From positions 1 to 52,838 of the forward strand of contig JAHPZE010000030.1 in the NCBI GenBank assembly GCA_019058365.1: a stretch of DNA of 52,838 nt. The letters run 5' to 3'. Each line of letters begins with the position of its first letter. Position 1 is the first letter of the stretch. The translations under genes were made by a program, and so were the position numbers. This document shows, in pieces, positions 13,797-15,976 of this stretch. The notes beneath the pieces were generated by a model. The model was not told the DNA's origin, did no database searches, and saw only the letters and a list, made by a program, of their open reading frames with translations. The stretch is from Promethearchaeota archaeon. Lineage in GTDB: Archaea; Asgardarchaeota; Lokiarchaeia; Sigyniarchaeales; SOKP01.

Positions 13797-13997
13797 AATT
13801 CAGAGAGTGAATGTCTTCATATACAACGGTTATCAAACAAATGTTGTGGAGCACAATGTGGATTTTATAAATCAAAAAATCCAATTAGAAAGAGAATTAA
13901 TAATGAATAATTTACTAACAAAATATAGGATAAATTTTCAAAATTTAATTCCTGTAAAAAATAAAAAGAAAGAAAATCCTAAAGCCGTGACAAAGCT

Positions 13998-14036
13998 GTC
14001 TTTGAGTATCTCGTTTTTTTCATACTCATTTCATTC
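13998..14036 (-). promoter_or_regulatory. Eukaryote-type SECIS candidate in the 3' UTR of the selenoprotein
   Basis: Minus strand AUGA-AAUGAGUAUG-AAAAAAA-CGAG-AUACUCA-AA-GA: AUGA-N10-AA-N18-GA with stem UGAGUAU/AUACUCA. Confidence 0.6.
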
Positions 14037-14582
14037 TTAATTAGGATTTATTAGATATTTATCAATTATTTCTATCATCATTTCAATTGAAGGTCTATCA
14101 GTTTTATCTTTTCCTATATATTTCCAGATAATTTCACTTTTATTATCGATGAGAAACTTACTTGGTACTGCTTGTTTTGTTTTATAATTTTTTCCTCCCC
14201 CAGATGCAAACCAGTAAACGCCATATTCTTTCGCAATTTTAGCACCTCTATCAGAAATAATATCTATTTTAAAACCATTCTCTTCTTTAAATTTTCTCAA
14301 AAGTCTGACGCTATCACTTGCAATAGAGATAATCTTAATCTTTCGATTTTCAAATTCAGAAATATGCTCAGTTAACAGTTTTAAATGCTTTTTACAATGA
14401 CTTCACCAATTACCGCGAAAAAAATCTATTAAAACGCCATCGTAAGTTTGAAGAAGATCATTTAGATTCATTGGATTCTCGTAAATATCTACAGTATTTA
14501 TCATTGGCGCTTTGGTCTTTATTTGAATCCCCTTTGGTCTTGGAGGTTCTTTATTGTTAATAACCGTTATTAAACACACCAT
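14037..14582 (-). CDS. Peroxiredoxin-like (AhpC/TSA, thioredoxin fold) selenoprotein with a UxxC motif
   Basis: One continuous frame except TGA at 14403-14405: ...VLIDFFRGNW-U-SHCKKHL...IISIASD...IISDRGAKIAKEYGV...AVPSKFLID; the ORF track shows only the C-terminal 87 aa. Confidence 0.88.
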
Positions 14583-14674
14583 TCTAAAGTAAATTTTATA
14601 AATATAAATTAAGATGGAAAATTTAAATTTTACTTAAATTTATAACTAAAAAAATTAGATGATCCTTCTCATTC

Positions 14675-15199
14675 TTAACTTGAATACTTTTCGAAAAGAA
14701 TTTCTGTAATAACATTGAAAGCTTTTTCTACGTTCTCCCCTGTTTTAGATGATAATTCCACGAAAGAAGCAAGATTATATTTTTTTGCTGCTAAAATTCC
14801 ATCATCGCGAGTTACTGCTCGAAATTCATTTAAGTCTACTTTTGATCCAATTAACATTATCGGTATATCTCCTGCATGCTCTCTAATTACTTGTGTCCAA
14901 TCTGGTAAATGATCTAACGATGTTTGATTAGTAATGTCATATAAAAAAAATGCTCCATTTGCACCTTTGCTATATTGAGAGAGTAGAAATCGAAATCGTT
15001 CTTCCCCACCAAAATCCCAAATTTGTAATTTTACTTTTTTATTTTTAAAGGAGGTTGTCTTACTATAAAAATCTACACCAATAGTTAATTTAAGGTCCTC
15101 CATGAAGAATCCAGAAATATATCTCATCGTTAATGAAGTTTTCCCTACAGATGCATCTCCTAGCATCATAATTTTAAAAGTATAATCGTAATCAGTCAT
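14675..15199 (-). CDS. Rab-like small GTPase
   Basis: GDASVGKT, TIGVDF, LQIWDFGGEERF, SKVD, LSSKTG. Confidence 0.93.
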   Translation of the reverse strand: MTDYDYTFKIMMLGDASVGKTSLTMRYISGFFMEDLKLTIGVDFYSKTTSFKNKKVKLQIWDFGGEERFRFLLSQYSKGANGAFFLYDITNQTSLDHLPDWTQVIREHAGDIPIMLIGSKVDLNEFRAVTRDDGILAAKKYNLASFVELSSKTGENVEKAFNVITEILFEKYSS

Positions 15200-15334: not shown

Positions 15335-15976
15335 TCATATTAACAAAATAAGAACATTAAAAAAAGAATGAGCGATTGAACAAGGAATTAGGGAATAATT
15401 AAAATACACATAAATAAGAGATAACATCAATCCAAATGTGAAATAATAACCGAAAAATGTTATGCTTGTAGTTAATGGTACTAAAAAAGGAGGTATATGA
15501 TATATTGTAAAAAAAATTGATGATATGATAAGTGAATAGGTTAATTTCAATTTAGTTTTCAATTTCTGTATTAGAAAACCTCTGAAAAAAGCTTCTTCGC
15601 AAGGACCAATAATTATTATTTGCAAGATTACTAGGATTATTAGTTGAATATAATTGGGTTGAATAGGAGATGTATTAATAGTTCCTTCTTGCCCAAGTTC
15701 GACAAATTCAGTGCTAAAAATATTTCCTATAATAAAATCCCGGAAAAAAATTATGATGTAATTGCCAAAAAAAAAGAAAATGATTCCAAAACTTAAGCCT
15801 GATACTATTTTAATAAAGATATCTTCATTTTTTTGAAATCCCATTCCTTTTATAGCATCCTTAAAAGGAATTTTTTCCAATTTGCTAGATAGTAGAGCAG
15901 GAACAACAATAAAAAAAATTTCAAAGAGCATTAACCCTATCAAGATCCAAGGGTTTTCTCCCAAATTTATTGCCAT
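15335..15976 (-). CDS. CPBP (Rce1/Abi, CAAX-type) intramembrane glutamic protease
   Basis: EEAFFRG, FTIYH and AHSFFN motifs intact. Confidence 0.88.
   Translation of the reverse strand: MAINLGENPWILIGLMLFEIFFIVVPALLSSKLEKIPFKDAIKGMGFQKNEDIFIKIVSGLSFGIIFFFFGNYIIIFFRDFIIGNIFSTEFVELGQEGTINTSPIQPNYIQLIILVILQIIIIGPCEEAFFRGFLIQKLKTKLKLTYSLIISSIFFTIYHIPPFLVPLTTSITFFGYYFTFGLMLSLIYVYFNYSLIPCSIAHSFFNVLILLI

Follow-up and report, generated by a model that had tools for sequence, protein, structure and literature searches.

We are highly confident that a single gene in the 52.8-kb stretch of DNA analyzed here (hereafter, the window) encodes a predicted selenoprotein of ~181 amino acids that belongs to the PrxL (UxxC) family of Loki-type Asgard archaea, with the UGA codon at 14405-14403 read as selenocysteine (Sec) under the direction of a lokiSECIS element. 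In the proposed mechanism, the UGA would be decoded by an archaeal/eukaryal-type tRNA-Sec along with PSTK, SepSecS, SelD and EFSec, and decoding would be directed by a eukaryote-like lokiSECIS that starts 2 nt past the TAA stop codon, ~370 nt downstream of the UGA, with a lower helix that would be formed, in part, by the last codons of the gene itself.

The PrxL family, its Sec codon and its type of SECIS are already known from a publication of 2016 and an Asgard-wide survey of 2024 (PMC4989117, PMC11227280), so that the window gene leaves the current understanding unchanged; Asgard is the one archaeal group for which the family has been published (PMC4989117, PMC11227280). The value of the present case is in the correction of annotations, given that gene callers split or shorten PrxL and that relatives are listed as fragments or with Trp in place of Sec. 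It also adds one more complete example of an Asgard Sec system, in which a eukaryote-like SECIS is combined with a twice-interrupted tRNA-Sec gene.

The reading frame across the UGA codon

The organism is an Asgard archaeon of the Promethearchaeia/Lokiarchaeia type, with a genome of 4.74 Mb (29.5% GC) in 54 contigs; the closest named records come from Promethearchaeia/Promethearchaeota MAGs (76-88% identity) and a Hermodarchaeota MAG (61%). The gene and its surroundings are laid out as follows.

14037..14582, minus strand: PrxL selenoprotein gene, 181 codons plus TAA, with the start at ATG 14582 or GTG 14579 (likely)
14403..14405, minus strand: UGA, the predicted Sec60, which opens the UxxC redox box
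14394-14396, minus strand: TGT codon of Cys63
14594..14608, minus strand: TATA-like box TTTATATTTATAAAA upstream of the start, read from the sequence and kept in close relatives; a putative promoter element
14675-15199, minus strand: Ras-family small GTPase (Pfam Ras, 4.6e-47)
15335-15976, minus strand: Rce1-like CAAX protease

A single frame runs from ATG 14582 to TAA 14039-14037, with the TGA as the sole interruption, being open for 59 codons ahead of the TGA and for 121 codons past it, and read-through yields 181 amino acids. The table 11 list of open reading frames cuts this gene into 14403..14582 and 14037..14300. The earlier note had taken it for a split UxxC peroxiredoxin-like selenoprotein of up to 181 amino acids, with the lone TGA at the first Cys of an FxRGxWCxxC motif, and this description holds: the motif is FFRGNW-U-SHC, with U60 and C63, and in the read-through protein, the Pfam matches to AhpC-TSA (5.7e-21, 75 bits) and Redoxin (1.1e-15, 58 bits) cover residues 22-168 and thus span the TGA, which is conserved and accompanied by a SECIS. 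No Cys is found outside the redox box in residues 5-181; Cys3 is part of the protein only if translation starts at ATG 14582 or GTG 14579.

One of these two codons is the likely start, as judged from the comparison of orthologs. Most orthologs start with ATG or TTG, preceded by a GGTG/GGAG-like element, at the position aligned to ATA 14570-14568 of the window. Four sequences (the window gene, L026, L031_1 and L028_1) have neither ATG nor TTG there, and all of these share a GTG three codons upstream, so that the ATA is not required; in two of the four, an ATG is found four codons upstream. The earlier proposal of ATG 14582 or ATA 14570 as the start stands in its first part, ATG being available, as is GTG 14579; the ATA, although present behind GGTG as described, is unnecessary with these two codons at hand.

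The neighbors of PrxL are a Ras-family small GTPase, an Rce1-like protease and NurA. The genes for Ras and the Rce1-like protease lie directly upstream of PrxL, and the order Rce1-like, Ras, PrxL is found in nearly all orthologous loci, with Ras, 82-99% identical, adjoining PrxL in 27 of the 29. The Ras protein of the window has no obvious C-terminal CAAX box.

When the read-through protein was used to search 151 genomes from the class of the organism, a homolog was found in 84, and nearly all of the full-length matches, ~110 in total and reaching down to 29% identity, contain one or two in-frame TGAs. For codon comparison, 36 genes, orthologs and paralogs, were extracted from 30 loci in ~30 independent assemblies. 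The earlier note had suggested examining orthologs for TGA or TGY at the Sec position, and the codon is TGA in 36 of the 36; Cys at this position was found neither among the class-wide matches in the 151 genomes nor among the best 120 database matches. The second redox position is occupied by TGT or TGC in 30 of the genes (UxxC) and by TGA in the remaining 6 (UxxU). The possibility that the TGA reflects a nonsense mutation or an error in sequencing, and the gene is accordingly a pseudogene or an artifact, has nothing in its favor beyond the stop codon itself, and its probability is close to nil: the same codon recurs throughout the independent assemblies and in-frame TGAs throughout the class-wide matches, and these comparative data refute a private mutation or error.

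Furthermore, in pairwise comparisons with the window gene, dN/dS is 0.06-0.20 upstream of the TGA and 0.03-0.17 downstream, with synonymous sites saturated in the more distant pairs. These values, well below 1, argue against a pseudogene and point to purifying selection on either side of the TGA, across which the reading frame is kept in all orthologs.

The same observations bear on the view that translation ends at the UGA and the C-terminal part alone is made from an internal start. This view fits the separate table 11 frame 14037..14300 and the public annotations, in which C-terminal 'redoxin' or 'peroxiredoxin family' proteins of 108-119 amino acids appear; C-terminal fragments of 100-119 amino acids account for 79 of the 120 best database matches, under the names 'redoxin domain-containing protein' and 'peroxiredoxin family protein', in MAGs of Lokiarchaeota, Promethearchaeota and Thorarchaeota. 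However, neither the redox box nor the first beta-strands of the fold would be present in such a fragment, the 59 N-terminal codons evolve under apparent purifying selection in a frame that is kept across the TGA, and the SECIS behind the gene also argues against a C-terminal product alone. We therefore consider this view very unlikely, and the fragments in the databases are best explained as gene-caller artifacts.

Some databases show W at the Sec position, as would be expected if the UGA were read as Trp, Cys or Gly, whether because the code had changed throughout the genome or by near-cognate read-through. In a collection of 5.8 billion proteins, all full-length relatives have W at this position (30 WxxC and 11 WxxW), but these entries come from short contigs and reflect TGA translated under code 4. 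The remainder of the window is tightly filled with long table 11 frames, so that TGA is an ordinary stop genome-wide and the case of PrxL is local. Reassignment of TGA throughout the genome (code 4 or 25) is ruled out by this dense coding. Given, in addition, that the genome encodes a dedicated tRNA-Sec(UCA), SepSecS, SelD and a SECIS, and that the position in question is the redox-active one, reading of the UGA as any of these three amino acids is extremely improbable, and Sec is the preferred assignment.

Apart from the UxxC copy of PrxL, the genome encodes no UxxU form, and the only paralog is a distant, stop-free redoxin (C16:65397-65711, 28% identity). In six loci of relatives (L028, L031, L035, L042, L046 and L048), the UxxC gene is followed, ~200 nt downstream, by a UxxU paralog with two Sec codons, and each of the tandem copies has its own SECIS behind it.

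The lokiSECIS element

The earlier note had named a SECIS, next to a UGA aligned with a redox Cys, as a hallmark of Sec, and a lokiSECIS with a type I eSECIS-like core was found right behind the stop codon, with support from covariation, folding and a covariance model. Its parts and the adjacent tract are listed below.

13999..14034, minus strand: lokiSECIS, type I eSECIS-like core
14034-14031, minus strand: AUGA of the core, 2 nt past the stop codon
14030-14022, minus strand: 5' arm, 9 nt
14021-14010, minus strand: apical loop, 12 nt, GAAAAAAACGAG, A-rich and ending in AG
14009-14001, minus strand: 3' arm, 9 nt
14000-13999, minus strand: GA behind the 3' arm
14041..14048, minus strand: 5' strand of the lower helix, AAUCCUAA, within the last three sense codons (Asn-Pro-Asn), with 1 nt between it and the stop codon
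13975..13982, minus strand: 3' strand of the lower helix, UUAGGAUU, paired with 14041-14048 in the minimum free energy (MFE) fold
13983..13997, minus strand: conserved mini-hairpin that separates the 3' GA from the lower helix, AGCU/GGCU, 4 bp with a 7-nt loop
13961..13974, minus strand: T-rich tract right behind the SECIS, read from the sequence, with a similar tract in orthologs; likely, an archaeal terminator

The published lokiSECIS consists of AUGA ahead of a 9-bp stem, an 11-nt apical loop and GA behind the stem, and in the loop, the initial nucleotides are adenines and the last one is an ultraconserved G with an A before it (Mariotti et al., PMC4989117). The window copy differs from this description: its loop is 12 nt long rather than 11, and the arms, in place of the 9 bp, have A-A mismatches in their two basal positions. 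Both the 12-nt loop and the outer A-A positions recur in L049, L031_2 and L028_2, and the 12-nt loop also in L034.

In the alignment of 35 orthologous 3' ends, compensatory double changes were detected in eight of the nine pairs of the upper stem and in 14 of the 21 pairs of the whole three-helix structure, where 87.8% of the cells pair compared with 30-52% when the partners are slid, and the covariation score was reached by none of the 500 shuffles. The lower helix shows double changes in four of its eight pairs across the orthologs, most of which have AUCCCAA/UUGGGAU at this place, with a compensated change of C-G to U-A in this genome. In the mini-hairpin (helix 3), 94% of the cells are paired and two of the four pairs show double changes; the MFE fold of the single sequence has a slightly different small hairpin at this site. 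The window SECIS alone folds into the same shape, with an MFE of -14.9 kcal/mol (z = -2.8).

A covariance model (R1) made without the window copy assigned 51.5 bits to the window SECIS and, when applied to the whole genome, with 150 of the ~7700 candidates scored, returned the window SECIS alone. A regular-expression descriptor of the strict lokiSECIS motif matched four sites in the 4.74 Mb of the genome, all four located directly behind open reading frames with in-frame TGA, namely PrxL, two MvhD/VhuD-like genes with two UGA each, and one gene with a tandem UGA-UGA. The three motifs outside the window are:

C16:433517-433551, minus strand: strict lokiSECIS motif
C21:106824-106858, minus strand: strict lokiSECIS motif
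C34:292516-292550, plus strand: strict lokiSECIS motif

The Rfam search with a permissive E-value, which covered the surroundings of the Sec genes and the whole window, gave no match to a SECIS or tRNA-Sec family; Rfam holds no model that matches lokiSECIS.

The connection between the SECIS and the end of the coding sequence goes further in some of the relatives. In 7 of the 36 orthologs (L029, L037, L045, the first gene of L048, L050, L053 and L054), the UGA within the AUGA core serves as the stop codon, and the coding sequence is extended, by one codon in L048 and by two or three codons in the others. The PrxL SECIS might, accordingly, be a family-specific three-part element that reaches beyond the published core hairpin and includes the coding lower helix and the mini-hairpin. 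We offer this interpretation tentatively and regard it as rather doubtful. As a part of it, the lower helix, being made of the last codons, may fix the C-terminal Asn-Pro-Asn/Lys. Should function depend on the lower helix and the mini-hairpin, termination would be coupled to the folding of the SECIS in the PrxL gene. Family-specific lower stems are mentioned for frhA and selD only (Huang 2024, PMC11227280).

On the strand opposite to the SECIS and overlapping both this element and the 3' end of PrxL, there is an open reading frame of 77 amino acids (window 13807-14040, plus strand). The weak 'conservation' that this frame shows among relatives falls on the SECIS region, so that it is probably not a gene.

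The selenocysteine machinery of the genome

The earlier note had called for the Sec machinery to be confirmed in the genome, and genes for tRNA-Sec, SepSecS and SelD are found, together with PSTK-like and EFSec-like genes that score below the curated cut-offs.

C34:23029-23185 (= L022:15030-15186), plus strand: tRNA-Sec gene, directly upstream of SepSecS
C34:23408-24565: SepSecS, 381.5 bits
C30:28235-29104, minus strand: SelD, one in-frame TGA, above the cut-off
C30:31024-31818, minus strand: SelD, ~2 kb from the other copy, one in-frame TGA, above the cut-off
C37:58890-59639: PSTK-like gene, 150.7 bits compared with a cut-off of 290.5, full-length and the clear best match
C34:17562-18599: SelB/EFSec-like gene, 240.9 bits compared with a cut-off of 242.25, ~4.4 kb from tRNA-Sec, the clear best match

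The cut-offs for PSTK and EFSec are those of the curated NCBIfam models, which were built on other lineages.

In the genomic DNA, tRNA-Sec was missed both by the Rfam model RF01852 and by ARAGORN, with and without introns, because two introns split the gene, one of 34 nt in the D-loop and the other of 30 nt in the T-loop. A hand-written scan for the 9/4 fold, which assumed an unbroken 5' half, produced false matches only, having failed because of the D-loop intron. In 31 of the 54 congeneric genomes, an intronless tRNA-Sec of 89 nt scores above the Rfam cut-off, and BLAST of these intronless genes against the genome located the interrupted one. The spliced sequence is called tRNA-SeC(tca) by ARAGORN and has a 9-bp acceptor stem and a 4-bp T stem (the 9/4 fold); its D stem is 7 bp long and its D loop 4 nt, and both G73 and an encoded CCA are present. 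The tRNA-Sec of Lokiarchaeum has a single intron, of 31 nt, in the T-loop (Mariotti et al., PMC4989117).

Three further observations were made in the vicinity of these genes. Positions 4-23 of the relatives' tRNA-Sec recur as an exact copy of 20 nt ~400 nt upstream of the real gene, at C34:22634-22653, plus strand (= L022:14635-14654), possibly left behind by a duplication or an integration. The locus C34:25450-25700, minus strand (= L022:17510-17695), looks like a tRNA gene with two or more introns and an acceptor stem GGGCCAU...AUGGCCC; its only Rfam match is an 18-nt tmRNA-like one, and ARAGORN does not list it. Just upstream of the second SelD region, at C30:32280-32335, minus strand (= L023:12281-12336), the fluoride riboswitch gives a match below the threshold (27.3 bits compared with a gathering threshold of 34, E = 0.0012).

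Predicted fold and chemistry, and comparison with known systems

The AF2 model of the protein (pLDDT 88.6) shows a thioredoxin-type fold in which the active-site helix begins at residue 61, which places Sec60 at the helix N-cap and Cys63 in the first turn. The top PDB neighbors of the model in the Foldseek search are Bcp4, PrxQ and AhpE (for 3hjp, TM 0.79/0.90 and rmsd 2.1 A), and the best PDB matches by sequence are ResA 4nmu (3e-10) and PrxQ 2cx3 (4.6e-10). Sec60 aligns to the first Cys of the WCxxC of ResA and, in Prx, to the Thr/Ser. Aligned with PrxQ 2cx3, PrxL lacks the signature of canonical peroxiredoxins, PxxxT/SxxC with a catalytic Arg: Pro is replaced by Arg56 and Ser by Sec60, the peroxidatic Cys corresponds to Cys63, the Arg of K-R-A-V is replaced by Gln137, and Pro-Ser-Lys is inserted behind Gln137. 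These replacements, together with the family-wide invariance of R56, W59, Q137 and P140, indicate that the predicted PrxL protein is not a canonical peroxiredoxin.

With the catalytic Pro, Thr and Arg of Prx missing, peroxidase activity should not be assumed, and for the same reason, we can only infer a function as peroxide or disulfide reductase. The likeliest chemistry would be that of a selenol/thiol redox-box oxidoreductase. On a BCP/PrxQ-like thioredoxin fold in which Sec60 is predicted to cap the N-terminus of the active-site helix, with Cys63 a turn further on, the selenolate of Sec60 would attack an oxidized substrate, either a disulfide or a peroxide; Cys63 would then resolve the intermediate, giving an intramolecular selenenylsulfide, which a thioredoxin-type reductant would reduce again. 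The PrxL family has never been characterized enzymatically (PMC4989117).

Among the known systems, the window gene is an ortholog of PrxL.2 of Lokiarchaeota (UxxC; Mariotti et al. 2016, PMC4989117). In that report, PrxL.2 has a CxxC redox box with Sec as the first Cys and PrxL.1 has Sec in both positions, with no other Cys and with a lokiSECIS behind the gene (PMC4989117). Like PrxL.2, the window protein combines an AhpC/TSA-Redoxin fold with Sec for the first Cys of CxxC, has no Cys outside the redox box in its conserved part, and is followed by a type I lokiSECIS close to the stop codon; as for the published PrxL, relatives carry the UxxU form (PrxL.1), often in tandem. The differences from PrxL.2, namely the 12-nt rather than 11-nt SECIS loop and, with an ATG or GTG start, Cys3 in a short and poorly conserved N-terminal extension, involve nothing essential. 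Of the Asgard archaea that use Sec, 43.2% have Prx-like selenoproteins, in most cases accompanied by type I eSECIS-like elements (Huang 2024, PMC11227280).

BCP/PrxQ and AhpE proteins (Bcp4 of S. solfataricus, 3hjp; PrxQ of A. pernix, 2cx3/4gqf) are the closest structural neighbors, but their PxxxT/SxxC and Arg signature is absent from PrxL. In thiol-disulfide oxidoreductases of the ResA/TlpA type (4nmu), WCxxC aligns with W-U-S-H-C of PrxL, and as in thioredoxin-like reductases, the invariant P140 precedes the F-L-I strand, presumably in the cis-Pro role. In contrast to PrxL, whose N-terminus shows no evident signal or anchor, ResA/TlpA proteins are membrane-anchored and extracytoplasmic, and the fold search puts Prx proteins, rather than these, first for PrxL. 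Finally, Prx-like selenoproteins have been described in bacteria and in some eukaryotes (Zhang and Gladyshev 2008, Jiang 2012 and Mariotti 2013, cited in PMC4989117), and by description, these share with PrxL the idea of UxxC on a Prx-like scaffold; unlike PrxL, the bacterial ones use a SECIS within the coding sequence and the eukaryotic ones use a eukaryotic SECIS.
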